DNA from: a virus | Taxonomy: Duplodnaviria; Heunggongvirae; Uroviricota; Caudoviricetes | DNA: 19,442 bases | IMG/VR virus record: IMGVR_UViG_2609459832_000003 | Span: 1 to 19,442 of that record | Reading direction: 5' to 3' (one strand) | Shown here: piece after piece, positions 3,608-18,607 of the stretch | How the letters are laid out: each line of letters begins with the position of its first letter | How positions within the stretch are numbered: the first letter of the stretch is position 1 | Program-made: the position numbers and the translations under genes | Notes under the pieces: model-generated | Database searches by the model: none | What the model was told of the DNA's origin: nothing | The model's input: the letters and a program-made list of their open reading frames with translations, nothing else

Positions 3608-4686
3608 CAGAACGGGTCCTCCTGTACTCTGGCTTTTTTCTTTTTCCGCGCGCCGGGAGCCTCGGGTTCAGGCAGATAAGCATCAGGCGGGCCGACACGG
3701 ATTTCCGTCAGGGTGCCGTTCTGGTCCTGAGTAAACGTGACTTCCGAGACAAGCAGTTCGGTATTGTCGAAACCACAGACCGGATCAAAGACAATCACCC
3801 GCTGGTTGGGCTGCCACAGCGTACCGTTACCCTGTCGCCAGCCCTGCACCACATAGGTGGTTTCATCCGTCCGCGCCGCCCGTTGTCGGGCTTCAAAGTC
3901 AGCACGGGCAATACAACCTGCCCCCGTAGCCTGCCCTGTCTGCCTGATATACATCGGACGGTAACGGGCAATAAATGCGTCCTCTGTGCGGGCCCTCAGC
4001 GCGGTGGTGGTGGCCTCACCGAAATCATCGTCGTTTCCGGCACGCTGCCCCGCCACCTGGTAAACAGAAAACCGCTCCCGGACACTCTTCTCCGTATCGC
4101 AGGAAAGGATGTTTTCCCCGAGCACCAGCGCAGTATGCGCCCGCGTTGAGCCAATACCGCCAATCACCAGCCTGCCGTGCGGGTCGTCGTAAGCCAGTGC
4201 CTGCTGCTGACCGAGTATTTTGTTGATTACCTCAATCACCGTTTCACCATGATCGGGCTGGACGTCAGGAATAACACCCGACGGCGCACCGCTGTTCACC
4301 ACCTCAATGCCGAAGGGCGCAGCAAGCGCCTGCGCAATCTGTACCAGCGATCGTCCGTTAAACTGTGTCGGTTCGGCTGCACAGTCAATCAGGTCAGCAG
4401 TCAGACTACGTCCGGCAATACCGGTGCTGACCGAACGGGCATCGTAACGAACGGGGGTCGCCTCCACCCAGCCGGTGATCACCAGTTCATCACCAATCAG
4501 CACCTCCACTTTTGAACCGTTTTTAATGCGCGGCTGAAGCGTGGTGATACCCTCACCCCCCGGCCACTGGCGGGTGATCTCCACACTGAAATCCCGTGCC
4601 AGCCGTTCAATACCGGCACCGATGCGCACCGATGTCCAGCCATTCCACTCCCGGCCATTTACCCGTAGCGTGACATTGTCGTTCAT
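3607..4686 (-). CDS. Tail/baseplate hub protein (Mu gp44 'P' / P2 gpD-like)
   Basis: 359-aa ORF immediately after the DNA-circulation gene (ATGA overlap at 4683-4686), as in Mu gp43-gp44. Confidence 0.7.
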   Translation of the reverse strand: MNDNVTLRVNGREWNGWTSVRIGAGIERLARDFSVEITRQWPGGEGITTLQPRIKNGSKVEVLIGDELVITGWVEATPVRYDARSVSTGIAGRSLTADLIDCAAEPTQFNGRSLVQIAQALAAPFGIEVVNSGAPSGVIPDVQPDHGETVIEVINKILGQQQALAYDDPHGRLVIGGIGSTRAHTALVLGENILSCDTEKSVRERFSVYQVAGQRAGNDDDFGEATTTALRARTEDAFIARYRPMYIRQTGQATGAGCIARADFEARQRAARTDETTYVVQGWRQGNGTLWQPNQRVIVFDPVCGFDNTELLVSEVTFTQDQNGTLTEIRVGPPDAYLPEPEAPGARKKKKARVQEDPF

Positions 4687-6011
4687 TGCACTGGCACCTT
4701 CAGAGGGATCACCGGCACAAAGCCGGGATGCGTAATGGCATTACGCCGGATAATGTCCTCGTCACGCGCCGCGTTATCAAACCAGGTCGCCGCCAGCACC
4801 AGCGCGGGTAAAACCTCATCCGGTGTGCGCTGAATGATCCGTGCAGACTGTTCAAGGCGCGTGTTGATATCCGCATTCAGATCTGCTTTCACCCGGCGCA
4901 GCGCCAGAAACAGCGCATCACTGGTTGTACGGGACAACTCCTTATCAATTGCCGTATTCAGTGTGTCGCGAATGTCGGTCAGTTCTTCCCACGTCGGCAG
5001 GTCAACCGTGTTTTTCACCGCCGGTGCATTGTTCAGTGCCGGATGCGTGACGGAAGGCCAGCCAGTGCTCTGCGCAGGTGTTGTTGCCTGCCCCACTGTG
5101 GCATTCTGCATCACTGCGGAAGTTGTTGGCGCAGGCAATCGGGTGACGGCATACGCCGCTTCGCTGATTGCGGTCGTACGAAGGGTGCTGGCAACCACGT
5201 TACGCTGCTGCGTCGCCGTGGCGGTAGTTTTACTGTCCGTTTTCCAGATGCCGCGCGGTTGCAGATCGCTGCCGAGGCTGACACCGGAAAGCGTTTTGAT
5301 CATGGTGACAAGGTCGCTGGCGTTACCATAAAGGCGTTTCCCGGTACGCCACATTTTCTGCACCTGCTCAACGAAATTTTTGCCTGACGATGGTGGCGGC
5401 AGAAGTACCGAGATATCCCCCTGCAACAGCCTGGCAGCATCCGATACGGCAGAATCCACCACTTTCATCGCATCAGAAACATACCCAAGCATTGTGCTGG
5501 CATTACCTACGACGTCGTTCTGCACAAAATCTGCCACGCCATCGATACTGAAACCACTGAAGCTGTCACTGATGCAGTCATCCAGTGCAGAACAGGATGA
5601 CATCAGCGTCTGCGCCGTCGCCGCACCTGAAGTGGGGTAAGAGAGTTCTCCCGCTTCGACAAACTTCAGGTCAAAGCGGACAATACGCCCTTCGCTCTTC
5701 GATGTGCTGACCCGAACCTCCCCGTCAACACAGACTTTCAGCTCACCGTATGTCGGATGGACAAGCGTGCCGGGACCGGGTTTATTCAGCGCGTCAATCA
5801 GGCGATCGCGCTGGTCAAAGCAGTCATCTCCCACCACATAAGCCGTGATGGACGGGCGGAAAGTGATTTTCCCCAGGTCTTCGGTATAGGGTTTGTCACG
5901 GTTCGGGTATTCGTGCGTTTCCACACGACGACCGGTTCCCGCACTTTCTTCTTCAACCTTAAACGGCACGCCGCGAAATGACGCGTCCTGAAGTCTGTCT
6001 TTCCACGTCAT
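4683..6011 (-). CDS. DNA circulation protein (Mu gp43 'N' family)
   Basis: N-terminus MTWKDRLQDASFRGVPFKV...GRRVETHEYPNRDKPYTEDLG matches the conserved DNA-circulation N-terminal domain. 442 aa. GGAG Shine-Dalgarno 6 nt upstream of the ATG at 6011. Confidence 0.8.
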   Translation of the reverse strand: MTWKDRLQDASFRGVPFKVEEESAGTGRRVETHEYPNRDKPYTEDLGKITFRPSITAYVVGDDCFDQRDRLIDALNKPGPGTLVHPTYGELKVCVDGEVRVSTSKSEGRIVRFDLKFVEAGELSYPTSGAATAQTLMSSCSALDDCISDSFSGFSIDGVADFVQNDVVGNASTMLGYVSDAMKVVDSAVSDAARLLQGDISVLLPPPSSGKNFVEQVQKMWRTGKRLYGNASDLVTMIKTLSGVSLGSDLQPRGIWKTDSKTTATATQQRNVVASTLRTTAISEAAYAVTRLPAPTTSAVMQNATVGQATTPAQSTGWPSVTHPALNNAPAVKNTVDLPTWEELTDIRDTLNTAIDKELSRTTSDALFLALRRVKADLNADINTRLEQSARIIQRTPDEVLPALVLAATWFDNAARDEDIIRRNAITHPGFVPVIPLKVPVQ

Positions 6012-6026
6012 ATAAACTCCGGATAC

Positions 6027-6082
6027 AAAAAACCCGCCAAATCTGCTTTGTCAGTTATTTACAGCGCAGAAGATGTGGCGGG
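6027..6082 (-). terminator. Rho-independent terminator at the 3' end of the AT-rich moron
   Basis: On the minus strand, CCCGCCA (rc of 6076-6082) pairs with UGGCGGG (rc of 6033-6039), with further AUCU/AGAU pairing inside, followed directly by U6 (rc of the A-run 6027-6032). It lies 20 nt after the moron stop codon and just before the gp43 ribosome-binding site. Confidence 0.6.
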
Positions 6083-6101
6083 AATCTAATATTTTTAATT
6101 A

Positions 6102-6596
6102 CTATCTGAGTTGAACATCAATGGAATAAACATCACCACTCTTTATAAATTTAGAATCTGTCCTTTCATCAAAAGATTCAAATGACTGTACATTTAAAAA
6201 CTTTTTCATTTTATTTTCAAAAATACTTTCATTAACACCAGTTAAATATTTGAATGCTCTACCAGCAAGGACCTCATTACTTAAATCCATTGTGTTTTTA
6301 TTGTCTTTGAAAAACCAAACAATAACCTTTTGTGGGCATGATGGATTATAAACAGATATATAAAACTGCGGCTCATATTTTTCATCAGCATCATCACTGA
6401 GCATTTCTTCAGAAGATAATTCTCTTCTGAATTCATATTGCCGCTTAGTGATTCCTTCATCCTTTATTATCTCTTGCTTAACTGGTGCAATACCTATAGA
6501 AGAGATTAATTCTGACTCATTAAAGTTGAACTTACACTCTTCCGCAGCCAAGTTAAAAGATAAAAGTGCAGATATAAAAAAAACAAAGATACGCAT
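6102..6596 (-). CDS. Hypothetical secreted (signal-peptide) protein of unknown function, encoded by an AT-rich moron
   Basis: Complete ORF, stop at 6102. Longest ORF starts at 6614 (MIEGMIM...), but the ATG at 6596 has a GAAGGG Shine-Dalgarno 6 nt upstream and gives a textbook signal peptide: MR + IFVFFISALLSF + NLA/AEE. Very AT-rich codon usage unlike all neighbours. Two Cys in the mature part. No family recognised from memory. Confidence 0.7.
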   Translation of the reverse strand: MRIFVFFISALLSFNLAAEECKFNFNESELISSIGIAPVKQEIIKDEGITKRQYEFRRELSSEEMLSDDADEKYEPQFYISVYNPSCPQKVIVWFFKDNKNTMDLSNEVLAGRAFKYLTGVNESIFENKMKKFLNVQSFESFDERTDSKFIKSGDVYSIDVQLR

Positions 6597-6626
6597 AATC
6601 ATCCCTTCAATCATTTGTAAGGAATG

Positions 6627-6658
6627 ATTATATTAACTACTTAAAGCTGAAAAGCCAA
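6627..6658 (-). promoter_or_regulatory. Candidate sigma70-type promoter for the moron gene
   Basis: On the minus strand: TTGGCT (rc of 6653-6658), 17-nt spacer, TAATAT (rc of 6630-6635), overlapping a perfect TATAAT (rc of 6627-6632). Sits in the 81-bp AT-rich gap between the tape-measure stop and the moron ORF. Predicted start site would give a ~25-nt leader to the 6596 ATG. Confidence 0.35.
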
Positions 6659-6695
6659 ATCATGCCAGACAAAAACACATTAATCATTTTGTACA

Positions 6696-8528
6696 CTACC
6701 TGAACCGCGTATAGCCAACATCATGGCTGACATCAAAACCGCTGGATCGCGTTTCCATAACCCGCATACCCGGAGGCGAATTCACAAAAGAGACCTTGAT
6801 CTCACCATCAACTTTTGGCACAAAAGCTTTGTTAATCATGAAGGGATTCGGGCCTGTGGCATCGGAGGCGTTGTTTGACTGAGCCGGATCTACCGCCGGA
6901 TAAGGTGTGTATCCCCGCGCCGGTATTCCCGTCCCATAAGCATCATAAGCACCCGCGCCCCACTGCGCAGAGTTAATGGCATCGACCGTGTCACCGGAAC
7001 TGTCGGTAAACCACTCAATAATGGGCTTCAGCTTGTCCCACATATCCTGAAACCACTTAACAACCGGCCCCCAGTTATTGATCACCATTCCCAGCGGCGA
7101 CCAGGCAAAAACTTTCTTAAGGAGTTCCCAGCCAGCCTCAAAATAAGGACCAATGGTTTCCCAGAGCTTCTTAAAATAAGGTCCGACAACATCCCAGTTA
7201 GTGATAATTAATCCCGCAGCCAGAGCAATCGCCGTCGCAATCATGCCAATCGGCGTCATCGACATGATCCTGCTGACAATACTGATGGCACCGCCCACGC
7301 CCATCAATCCCAGTTTCAGAATCGCAAGACCGGCAGCAAGCCCGACGATGCCGCGAATAACCCGGGGATTTTCATCCGCAAACTTCGTGAATTTTTCCCC
7401 CAACTCCCCCAGCCATTGCGTGATATTTTTGGCGTCACCAGAAAATGCGCCGCCAATAGCCGCAAGGCCGTTAGTTGCGGTCCCTGTCATTGCCTCCCAC
7501 AGATTGGACAGCGTACCAAGCTGTGCCTGAACACGTTTATTCAGGCTGGCCTGTTTATTCATCTTCTGCTGGATCTGATCGTAACCATCCTTTCCTTTAT
7601 CGATCAGAGCATTGACCACCTGAAGGGTTTCGGCATCATCACCAAATATTGCCTTAAGTACACCTGTTCGCTTAACGTCGGTCAGTTTTCGCAGCTTTGC
7701 CAGTTGCTTAAACATGTTATCAAGACCGCCAAAACTCCCTTTGCCGTCAGTAAAATCGAGCTGCACTCCGAGTTTCTGGCGGGCCATGACTTTATTGACG
7801 TCCCTGATTTTCTTAACGCTTAATCCGGACTGGATAACTTTTCGCAGGGCGTTACCTGCCGACTCCCCGTTCATCCCCATCTGATCCATCATGACGCTGA
7901 TGGGGGCAAGGCTCTGTGCAGCCTGAAGACCGTCCTTGTTCACCATCTTCAGAACAGAGCTGGTTTTAGTGAAGAAGGACAACATGTTGGTATCGTCAAC
8001 GCCCAGATAAAACGCCTTCTGGATAGTGTCGAACAGCCCCATCATGTCTTCTGACGCCGTTCCGGTAGCATCCTGCATCTTTGCGGCAAACTCGGCAGCC
8101 GCTTCCGGTGTTTTTTTCAGTTGTACCGCAAGATAAGCTGTCGCTTTACCCACACCGCCAAGAATGTTTTCTGCCGGGATCCCCTGACGCACCAGCATCT
8201 GCATCATGTTCTGGAAATCAGCCGTTGTACCGGGTAGCTGGTTACCCAGGCCAATAGCCAGTTTATTGATGTCCTGAAAGCGCTTTCCAACCTCGCCGTT
8301 CGCATCCATCATGGCGACTTTCAGCCCGGTGGCGGCGTTTTCCTGATCGGCATAAGATTTCAGGGAAAGCGTCAAACCCGCTGCCAGTCCGCCACCAAGC
8401 GCCAGCCCACCCTGTGACGCTTCTTCCGCCTGGCGTTTAAATCCCCGGATTTTCTTTTGCATTTTCGACAGCGCGGGAGAAAGCCTGTCGACACCGGTGA
8501 TCAACGCCTTAAGCTCAAATTCAGCCAT
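6696..8528 (-). CDS. Tail tape measure protein
   Basis: 610-aa ORF after the chaperone/frameshift pair. Central hydrophobic stretch and periodic aromatic residues (NWDVVGPYFKKLWETIGPYFEAGWELLKKVFAW...WFQDMWDKL) are typical of tape-measure proteins. Gly/Ala-rich. Confidence 0.85.
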   Translation of the reverse strand: MAEFELKALITGVDRLSPALSKMQKKIRGFKRQAEEASQGGLALGGGLAAGLTLSLKSYADQENAATGLKVAMMDANGEVGKRFQDINKLAIGLGNQLPGTTADFQNMMQMLVRQGIPAENILGGVGKATAYLAVQLKKTPEAAAEFAAKMQDATGTASEDMMGLFDTIQKAFYLGVDDTNMLSFFTKTSSVLKMVNKDGLQAAQSLAPISVMMDQMGMNGESAGNALRKVIQSGLSVKKIRDVNKVMARQKLGVQLDFTDGKGSFGGLDNMFKQLAKLRKLTDVKRTGVLKAIFGDDAETLQVVNALIDKGKDGYDQIQQKMNKQASLNKRVQAQLGTLSNLWEAMTGTATNGLAAIGGAFSGDAKNITQWLGELGEKFTKFADENPRVIRGIVGLAAGLAILKLGLMGVGGAISIVSRIMSMTPIGMIATAIALAAGLIITNWDVVGPYFKKLWETIGPYFEAGWELLKKVFAWSPLGMVINNWGPVVKWFQDMWDKLKPIIEWFTDSSGDTVDAINSAQWGAGAYDAYGTGIPARGYTPYPAVDPAQSNNASDATGPNPFMINKAFVPKVDGEIKVSFVNSPPGMRVMETRSSGFDVSHDVGYTRFR

Positions 8529-12925: not shown

Positions 12926-12947
12926 GATTCTTCACCCGTCAGAACAG

Positions 12948-12967
12948 GGGGCGCGGTTCCGCGCCCC
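12948..12967 (-). other. GC-rich hairpin just downstream of the major capsid gene
   Basis: GGGGCGC (12948-12954) / GCGCCCC (12961-12967) inverted repeat with a 6-nt loop, 8 nt after the capsid stop codon. No U-run follows. Confidence 0.5.
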
Positions 12968-12974
12968 TGAATGA

Positions 12975-18482: not shown

Positions 18483-18532
18483 ATGCGGCACTCCTGGTTA
18501 AATTTCATTTTTCGCGGGTATAAAAAAACGAT

Positions 18533-18581
18533 GGGGCGGGCAGTCCGGAAGACGTCAGGTCACAGGGATTTGACCCGCCCC
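18533..18581 (-). other. GC-rich inverted repeat with downstream U-run in the HNH-terS intergenic region (terminator-like; possible cos/terminase recognition region)
   Basis: GGGGCGGG (18533-18540) and CCCGCCCC (18574-18581) form a perfect 8-bp inverted repeat with a 33-nt spacer containing the palindromes TCCGGA and GACGTC. On the coding strand the stem is followed by AUCG and U7 (rc of 18523-18529). Confidence 0.4.
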
Positions 18582-18607
18582 TCCCCTCTGTCAGTGGGAA
18601 CTGATTC

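Follow-up and report, generated by a model that had tools for sequence, protein, structure and literature searches.

What is a GC-rich hairpin with a U-run doing in the middle of a phage late operon, a few nucleotides in front of a baseplate gene, and to which of its neighbours does it belong? The window, i.e. the whole stretch of 19,442 nt analysed here, is an SfV-like prophage with HK97-type head genes and Mu-type tail genes; it belongs to the SfV/SfII group, with lambdoid regulation, the HK97-type head and a contractile Mu-type tail. All long open reading frames of the window are carried by the minus strand and make up a phage late operon in the order terminase, portal, protease, major capsid, connector genes, sheath, tube, chaperone, tape measure, an AT-rich open reading frame, and homologues of Mu N/gp43, P, Q, V, W and YmfQ. 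The nearest complete genome is a prophage of E. coli UTAK-3 with 99.6% identity across the entire window (66 mismatches and 10 gaps), while the isolated and deposited phage SKA5 possesses the same junction type and is 97.7% identical to the window in the junction region. In the PGAP annotation of the UTAK-3 prophage (L005) terS, the tail terminator gene and a holin gene are flagged as frameshifted and YmfQ as truncated, so this copy is probably defective. The junction between the tape measure gene (TMP) and N comprises the following features.

6696..8528, minus strand: tail tape measure gene, identified by Pfam PF10145 and from the annotated near-identical prophage; it bounds the cargo slot on the upstream side
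6102..6596, minus strand: AT-rich cargo ("moron") gene of 164 aa (164–170 aa depending on the start; the longest open reading frame starts at 6614)
6076..6082, minus strand: 5′ arm of the basal stem of the putative terminator, CCCGCCA (from sequence and folds); the compact terminators of orthologous loci have a homologous CCCGC arm
6040..6075, minus strand: structured 36-nt insert in place of a UUCG-type tetraloop (from the fold)
6070–6066 with 6046–6042, minus strand: inner 5-bp helix of UCUGC with GCAGA inside the 36-nt insert (from the fold)
6033..6039, minus strand: 3′ arm of the basal stem, UGGCGGG (from sequence and folds)
6027..6032, minus strand: U6 tract abutting the stem (from sequence)
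6017..6020, minus strand: Shine-Dalgarno sequence GGAG of the N/gp43 gene, 6 nt upstream of the N ATG (6011)
4683..6011, minus strand: Mu N/gp43-like DNA circularisation (baseplate hub) gene, 442 aa (Pfam PF07157, E 6e-34)

The preliminary description of this locus had reported a GC stem CCCGCCA/UGGCGGG with inner pairing and U6 on the coding strand between the moron stop codon and the ribosome-binding site of gp43, and the sequence confirms this at exactly that place. The basal stem consists of 7 bp, six of which are G-C pairs, and the first base of the U-tract (UUUUUUGU) follows directly after the stem. GUAUCC lies between U6 and GGAG, and the latter is separated from the N ATG by 5 nt. The hairpin is situated in non-coding sequence 19 nt past the moron stop codon TAG (6104–6102) and 21 nt short of the N ATG. 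It is also stable: the 50-nt stem-loop alone folds with -20.6 kcal/mol (z -5.1, with none of 200 shuffles as good), a 71-nt segment has a minimum free energy of -22.5 kcal/mol (z -3.6, 1 of 200 shuffles), and the hairpin is retained on folding with 174 nt of context.

In a custom scan of every sense-strand run of at least five T in the window, allowing hairpins of up to 60 nt, the element ranks second of 21 runs, the top two both being intergenic. The best hairpin/T-run of the sense strand is a long GC-rich hairpin at 18584..18530 on the minus strand (GGGGCGGG...CCCGCCCC, -25.2 kcal/mol) followed by AUCG and U7, which is located in the 121-nt gap from the HNH endonuclease gene to terS; it may represent a terminator or belong to the cos region. 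A 10-bp hairpin of G and C only (AGGGGCGCGG-AA-CCGCGCCCCU) is found at 12969..12946, minus strand, directly past the major capsid stop codon and without a U-run; Mu has a terminator predicted by TransTermHP at the equivalent place. A simple terminator scan does not list the element between the moron and N, because that scan allows loops of 3–8 nt only. With its 36-nt, partly self-paired loop the window hairpin indeed departs from the compact form with a loop of about 3–8 nt that is characteristic of intrinsic terminators, while a GC-rich stable stem, a U-tract directly 3′ of it and a non-coding site past a stop codon are all present, and compensatory changes are found at the homologous positions in a set of sequences selected as hairpins. 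A bidirectional terminator was considered and rejected: the plus strand can fold just as well, yet no T-run adjoins the structure there, and the element is therefore unidirectional. The 55-nt hairpin including the insert was located in 85 of 5426 E. coli genomes, in each as a single copy and always at this junction; this single context argues against a dispersed repeat or mobile element as the origin of the 36-nt insert. An Rfam scan of positions 5800–6900 at E ≤ 1 returned no known RNA family, only two sub-threshold chance matches to eukaryotic snoRNAs. Judged by these features, the element is very probably an intrinsic (Rho-independent) terminator downstream of the moron gene in the tail operon of the prophage.

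From its position behind the moron the preliminary description had concluded that the terminator marks the moron as an autonomous unit. This conclusion does not hold up against the relatives of the window. The TMP–N junction is a hot-spot for cargo, of which E. coli has at least six states. These were found among phages of E. coli and Shigella with an N of 96% identity or more, and are listed below with their counts, where available, in 5426 complete E. coli genomes.

State A (532 genomes): empty, 63-nt spacer, hairpin GUCCCAC-UCCG-GUGGGAU + U6
State B (85 genomes): window type, expanded-loop hairpin + U6
State C (177 genomes): a different gene of 176 aa (second moron), hairpin GCCACCU-UCUAAU-AGGUGGC + U6
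State D (56–72 genomes): antisense OB-fold, Sie-like gene; sense-strand terminator absent
State E (101 genomes): 162-aa secreted protein (fourth cargo), hairpin CCGCGU-UUAC-ACGCGG + U5
State F: SfIV, 24-nt spacer, no hairpin

Some state of the cargo slot is present in about 950 of the 5426 genomes. The 80 IMG/VR loci with nearly identical N comprise the empty type, the window type, the second moron and the antisense cargo type, and 62 of them have the 63-nt spacer instead of the 684-nt cassette, as do SfII and SfV, both of which are cargo-less and carry the state A hairpin. In the GenBank record of SfII (KC736978, 11928–11966) this hairpin is annotated as 'putative rho-independent terminator', a feature that goes back to a prediction with the ARNold software (PMC3851460).

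Several peculiarities of these loci should be mentioned. The annotated N genes of SfII (L001 727) and SfV (L002 754) begin at different upstream in-frame ATGs, and the SfII start reads through the terminator hairpin; the conserved N start, with GGAG-N5-ATG and the N-terminus MTWKDRL or MAWKDRL, lies further downstream. The antisense OB-fold, Sie-like gene in the slot (L004 705–760, L090 1058–1100) is phrog_8545; the GGGAGGGCCGCCC(C)UCCC hairpin right after the tape-measure stop codon is its terminator, and in these two loci other sequence stands in place of both the sense terminator and the GGAG ribosome-binding site that N usually has. In E. coli ET120 (L087) a deletion fuses early genes (rusA, ninH and a truncated phosphoesterase) to the last few tape-measure codons, and this deletion prophage has the type A terminator and N intact. 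The antisense accessory gene STMMW_20121 from the Salmonella ST64B transcriptome (PMC7067206) could not be placed at the TMP–N junction and was not used.

The hairpin extends well beyond E. coli and Shigella. A scan of distant genomes by N alignment, with one genome per species, yielded 23 loci with N 48–98% identical, to which a protein search of deposited phages added Yersinia phage YeP2, an ST64B-like Salmonella phage and Pantoea phage AH07. Moron orthologues at 61–62% protein identity occupy the same slot in front of a diverged N and are followed by CCCGC-UUCG-GCGGG and U7, and in AH07 an orthologue of 43% identity precedes GACCCGC-UGCG-GCGGGU and U6. The tetraloops in orthologous loci are UUCG, UCCG or UGCG, and the 36-nt insert is absent from the 61% and the 43% orthologues. 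Since both of these carry the same CCCGC/GCGGG stem, the window hairpin is best described as the compact stem with an expanded loop; in the window lineage an ancestral tetraloop would have been expanded by about 34 nt, with basal stem and U-run left untouched. In SfII and SfV the stretch that begins with the type A stem and ends at the N ATG is colinear with its counterpart in the orthologues, the stems differing by compensatory pairs.

With N at 48–72% identity, the hairpin is also found in Kosakonia, Kluyvera, Atlantibacter, Edwardsiella, Serratia, Symbiopectobacterium, Pantoea, YeP2 and the ST64B-like Salmonella phage. In Kosakonia, Kluyvera, Atlantibacter, three Edwardsiella loci and Serratia microhaemolytica the hairpin with its T-run lies 20–28 nt upstream of the N ATG; the distance from the stem end to the ATG is 20–23 nt in most relatives, and each of the sense-strand hairpins detected at the junction in relatives is followed by a T-run. 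Four empty lineages, their spacers measuring 37–63 nt, also keep the hairpin within those 20–28 nt of the N ATG; they include YeP2, the Salmonella phage grouped with a gut Enterobacteriaceae genome, and Symbiopectobacterium grouped with Pantoea bathycoeliae, and in the last two the hairpin directly abuts the tape-measure stop codon. S.Typ Adana likewise belongs to the cargo-less phages in which a homologous hairpin and U-run lie at the same distance from the N start. The sense hairpin is absent at the antisense-cargo junctions of Scandinavium, Buttiauxella and Citrobacter, at a junction of only 3 nt (L143) and in some Symbiopectobacterium loci with two small sense open reading frames. Mu has a Y–N gap of 4 nt, no terminator there and its late promoter Pp inside N, and was discarded as a model of a transcription-unit boundary at the junction.

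Covariation was assessed on an alignment of 14 different compact hairpins; six stem from empty junctions, and the other eight follow cargo genes of three unrelated families. Standard pairs are formed in 84 of 84 cells, a percentage that is biased upward and partly circular because the sequences were chosen as hairpins; the compensatory substitutions are unaffected by this choice, and double changes are seen in five of the six pairs. The covariation score amounts to 0.522 as compared to 0.17 ± 0.04 in column shuffles, none of 500 reaching the score, and to at most 0.115 in controls with slid partners. A smaller alignment set gives the same picture.

By homology, then, the predicted terminator is a feature of the TMP–N junction that is independent of the cargo: it belongs to the junction and not to the moron, because cargo-less SfII, SfV, YeP2, S.Typ Adana, Symbiopectobacterium and Pantoea keep a homologous hairpin with compensatory changes in the stem. 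Non-homologous cargoes, namely a 150-aa protein in Kosakonia, a 134-aa protein in Edwardsiella and the moron B family, are followed by the same alignable hairpin, and the terminator appears to be under selection both with unrelated cargo and with none. The hairpins of states C and E and of loci L142 and L151 defy alignment in register and could have come in with their own cargo (the second moron and the fourth cargo in states C and E), yet they have a T-run at the same distance, which lends convergent support to a terminator rather than to mere structure.

An alternative, which we regard as unlikely, is that each sense cargo brought its own terminator and that the hairpin in empty phages is the functionless leftover of a deleted moron. 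The differences in sequence and register between the hairpins of states C and E, L142 and L151 and the CCCRC family agree with such an origin, as does the region just past the tape-measure stop codon in empty SfII, the first approximately 25 nt of which are AT-rich, resemble the left end of the moron cassette and have the look of a deletion scar; antisense cargo cassettes, moreover, do bring their own terminator and replace the whole spacer. However, a leftover is hard to reconcile with four empty lineages from different genera that keep a perfect stem of 5–7 bp, compensatory double changes and a U-run, with the scar-free junctions of Symbiopectobacterium and Pantoea, where the hairpin abuts the tape-measure stop codon, and with the alignable hairpin shared by non-homologous cargoes. 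For the junction terminator itself two histories are possible. It may pre-date the cargo, genes having been inserted in front of it, or an old unit of cargo plus terminator may have repeatedly lost or exchanged its gene while the terminator was retained; under either history the terminator is independent of the present gene.

A phage can be viable without the terminator, which is missing from SfIV with its 24-nt spacer, from L143 with a 3-nt junction, from Mu with 4 nt and from all antisense-cargo junctions. That SfIV and the phages with antisense cargo do without it agrees with a function in the lysogen or in fine-tuning, not in virion assembly. An effect during lytic growth is conceivable: a partial terminator (attenuator) or a stabiliser of the mRNA 3′ end could reduce the output of the baseplate genes, which are low-copy, compared with that of the high-copy sheath, tube and tape-measure genes, and would not be exclusive of a role in the lysogen. 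The site at the exact border of tail-shaft and baseplate genes and its conservation without cargo would suit this function; a strong GC hairpin, albeit without U-run, also stands behind the major capsid gene, and Mu provides a precedent for a transcriptional boundary nearby with its predicted terminator after the capsid gene and a separate baseplate late promoter inside N. RNA polymerase modified by lambda Q crosses intrinsic terminators efficiently. The same is to be expected of a Q-modified polymerase at this site (PMC8955417), and infectious phages without the element exist (SfIV and the antisense-cargo types), which makes the attenuator quite improbable. That the hairpin is no terminator at all is very improbable, for although the constant 20–23 nt from stem end to N ATG and the U-run just upstream of the Shine-Dalgarno sequence would suit a signal acting in the translation or processing of N (leaders rich in U can enhance translation), the segment from U-run to ATG is of shared ancestry, which accounts for the constant spacing, the non-homologous hairpins at the junction have U-runs behind them as well, the Rfam scan gave no match, and a chance structure is ruled out by z-scores and covariation.

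The gene in front of the terminator shows several traits of a moron. Moron elements were reportedly defined by Juhala et al. in 2000. The gene lies between genes that are adjacent in relatives (63-nt spacer versus 684-nt cassette) and deviates in base composition, its GC content being 0.28–0.34 as compared to about 0.55 in the flanks; the cargo in other genera is likewise of low GC. It does not, as described above, carry its own terminator with the cassette, for a homologous terminator is found in cargo-less phages and behind non-homologous cargo. The moron character that the preliminary description had ascribed to the gene is supported by its absence from close relatives, by its GC content and by a conserved -10-like hexamer upstream, the latter being part of the following elements.

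6627..6658, minus strand: putative sigma-70 promoter of the moron, TTGGCT (6658–6653), 17-nt spacer, TAATAT (6635–6630)
6594..6632, minus strand: leader hairpin with a 14-bp helix, in which the -10 region and the next 8 nt are paired with the Shine-Dalgarno sequence (6608–6602) and the AUG (6596–6594) of the moron

A perfect TATAAT (6632–6627) overlaps the TAATAT of the candidate promoter, which scores below the 9-of-12 threshold of the promoter scan. At the equivalent place a -10-like hexamer is present in the 61% orthologues (TGaTATAAC, an extended -10) and in AH07 (TATAAT). The leader hairpin has a ΔG of -16.5 (z -4.9, none of 200 shuffles), and the 61% orthologues L125 and L127 display the same leader architecture in different sequence (z -3.1 and -4.2). 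An RBS-occluding leader hairpin as a general trait of the cargo was rejected, as it is absent in six other cargo types and thus specific to the moron family of the window. By analogy with the fold-back inhibition of IS10, the leader hairpin could silence translation of late transcripts that read through from upstream. It may thereby add a second layer of control, with the ribosome-binding site hidden in read-through transcripts and the protein made only from the moron promoter in the lysogen.

The moron protein has an N-terminal segment resembling a signal peptide (MRIFVFFISALLSFNLAAEE). It matches no Pfam family and is assigned to phrog_8976 (PHROG 8976), which has no assigned function; its structure model is confident, and fold comparison gave no convincing match. 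The product is most simply a secreted or periplasmic accessory protein. In AH07 the orthologue in the same slot is 43% identical and N is 51% identical. The moron family is, as far as these identities tell, an old one whose divergence tracks that of N, and its low GC content is for this reason not a sign of recent import.

If the terminator is active in the lysogen, the late polymerase must be able to pass it, and the preliminary description had accordingly supposed the late transcript to be terminator-resistant. Of this claim an expectation stands, founded on the Q-type antiterminator genes that the near-identical prophage and SKA5 encode in canonical position. In the UTAK-3 prophage, outside the window, rusA is followed by a DUF1133 protein (L005 3337–3990) that also matches the Q21-type family PF06530 (29 bits, cut-off 26). 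A candidate late promoter, TTGATT-17-TTCAAT, overlaps the end of this Q-position gene, a hairpin with T-run, AACCCGC-CUUCGA-GCGGGUU UUGUUUUAUU, is found 78 nt downstream of its stop codon, and a further hairpin with T-run lies behind the lysis genes. SKA5, with the same junction, and SfII, with a homologous junction, have annotated Q genes, and Q in the SfV/SfII phage group is described in the SfIV paper (PMC3851460). Directly downstream of the Q-like gene, in the position of the Shiga toxin genes in Stx phages, the UTAK-3 prophage harbors an ArtAB-like toxin pair (L005 4267–5485, outside the window) consisting of genes for a scabin-related ADP-ribosyltransferase and for the B subunit of a subtilase-family AB5 toxin. 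Where an operon combines internal terminators with processive antitermination, spurious transcription is limited and parts of the operon can be expressed on their own (PMC8955417). With very long stems, terminators resist a processive antiterminator (PMC10325885), and the loop expansion of the window hairpin might conceivably alter its susceptibility to Q; its structure of 7+5+3 bp is, however, interrupted and not a long perfect stem.

Taken together, we consider it probable that the hairpin is a junction terminator of SfV/ST64B-like phages with Mu-type tails which stops transcripts in the lysogen and is crossed by Q-modified polymerase. For the lysogen we infer that host RNA polymerase would start at the moron promoter (about 6620) or at a spurious start upstream, transcribe the gene of the 164-aa secreted protein and release the RNA in the U-run 6032–6027, 21 nt before the N start, so that the baseplate and fibre genes would remain silent. 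In the lytic phase, polymerase that the Q-type antiterminator has modified at the late promoter would ignore the terminators of the operon and enter the baseplate genes. The terminator would be older than the present cargo or outlive it, different genes being swapped in just upstream.

More tentatively, and with more doubt than conviction, the TMP–N terminator may be seen as a backbone-encoded insulator older than its cargo, a 'safe harbour' in the late operons of SfV/ST64B-like phages across Enterobacterales. If so, any promoter-bearing gene landing just upstream would automatically be insulated from the baseplate genes, and this would account for the presence of at least seven unrelated cargo genes at one junction, with secreted proteins, a Sie-like exclusion protein and others exchanged before a fixed backbone terminator. 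The slot would then be a predictable place for lysogenic-conversion or anti-phage genes in a large phage group and a natural insertion point for engineering such phages with tail assembly undisturbed.

The architecture as such, a moron with terminator and antitermination, is ordinary, and the SfII homologue of the terminator has already been annotated. New are the cargo-independent conservation of the terminator across genera with covariation, the loop expansion in the window lineage, the census of the cargo slot and the conserved hairpin in the moron leader, which would occlude the ribosome-binding site. In comparison with the moron elements of lambdoid phages, such as HK97 gene 15 and lambda lom and bor (reviewed in PMC3594210), the window likewise shows an extra AT-rich gene in the late structural operon that is absent in close relatives and has a promoter-like site upstream and a terminator downstream; HK97 gene 15 even adjoins the tape measure gene, as the window moron does. 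Contrary to those elements, the terminator of the window is common to cargo-less relatives, conserved by covariation and does not travel with the moron, and the cargo family is old and no recent import despite its low GC content. The SfII terminator agrees with that of the window in junction, strand, distance to the N start, the homologous stem (CCCAC/GUGGG versus CCCGCC/GGCGGG) and U6, whereas SfII has a 4-nt loop and no cargo, and the window a 36-nt structured loop with a 164-aa gene upstream.

The late operons of lambda, 21 and 82 depend on Q, and their Q-modified polymerase crosses tR′ and the terminators downstream. The phages described here resemble them in a Q-family gene after rusA with a candidate promoter and a candidate terminator just downstream, as well as in a long late operon with several predicted intrinsic terminators. 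They differ in that the Q gene lies outside the window and is deduced from near-identical genomes, and the Q families vary among close relatives, with DUF1133/PF06530 in UTAK-3 and a 250-aa Q in SKA5. A functional parallel is provided by the conAn system of pLS20 conjugation operons, where polymerases that began elsewhere than at the regulated promoter are halted by internal terminators and a gene with a weak constitutive promoter is expressed alone up to the next terminator (PMC8955417). Element and antiterminator are unrelated to those of the window, and the analogy is one of function only. The transposases of IS10 and IS50 are subject to fold-back inhibition of translation. The moron leader is comparable in that sequence upstream of its own presumed transcription start can pair with the ribosome-binding site, by which read-through transcripts would become translationally silent; in contrast to the insertion elements, the transcript made from the moron's own start may still contain some of the 5′ arm.
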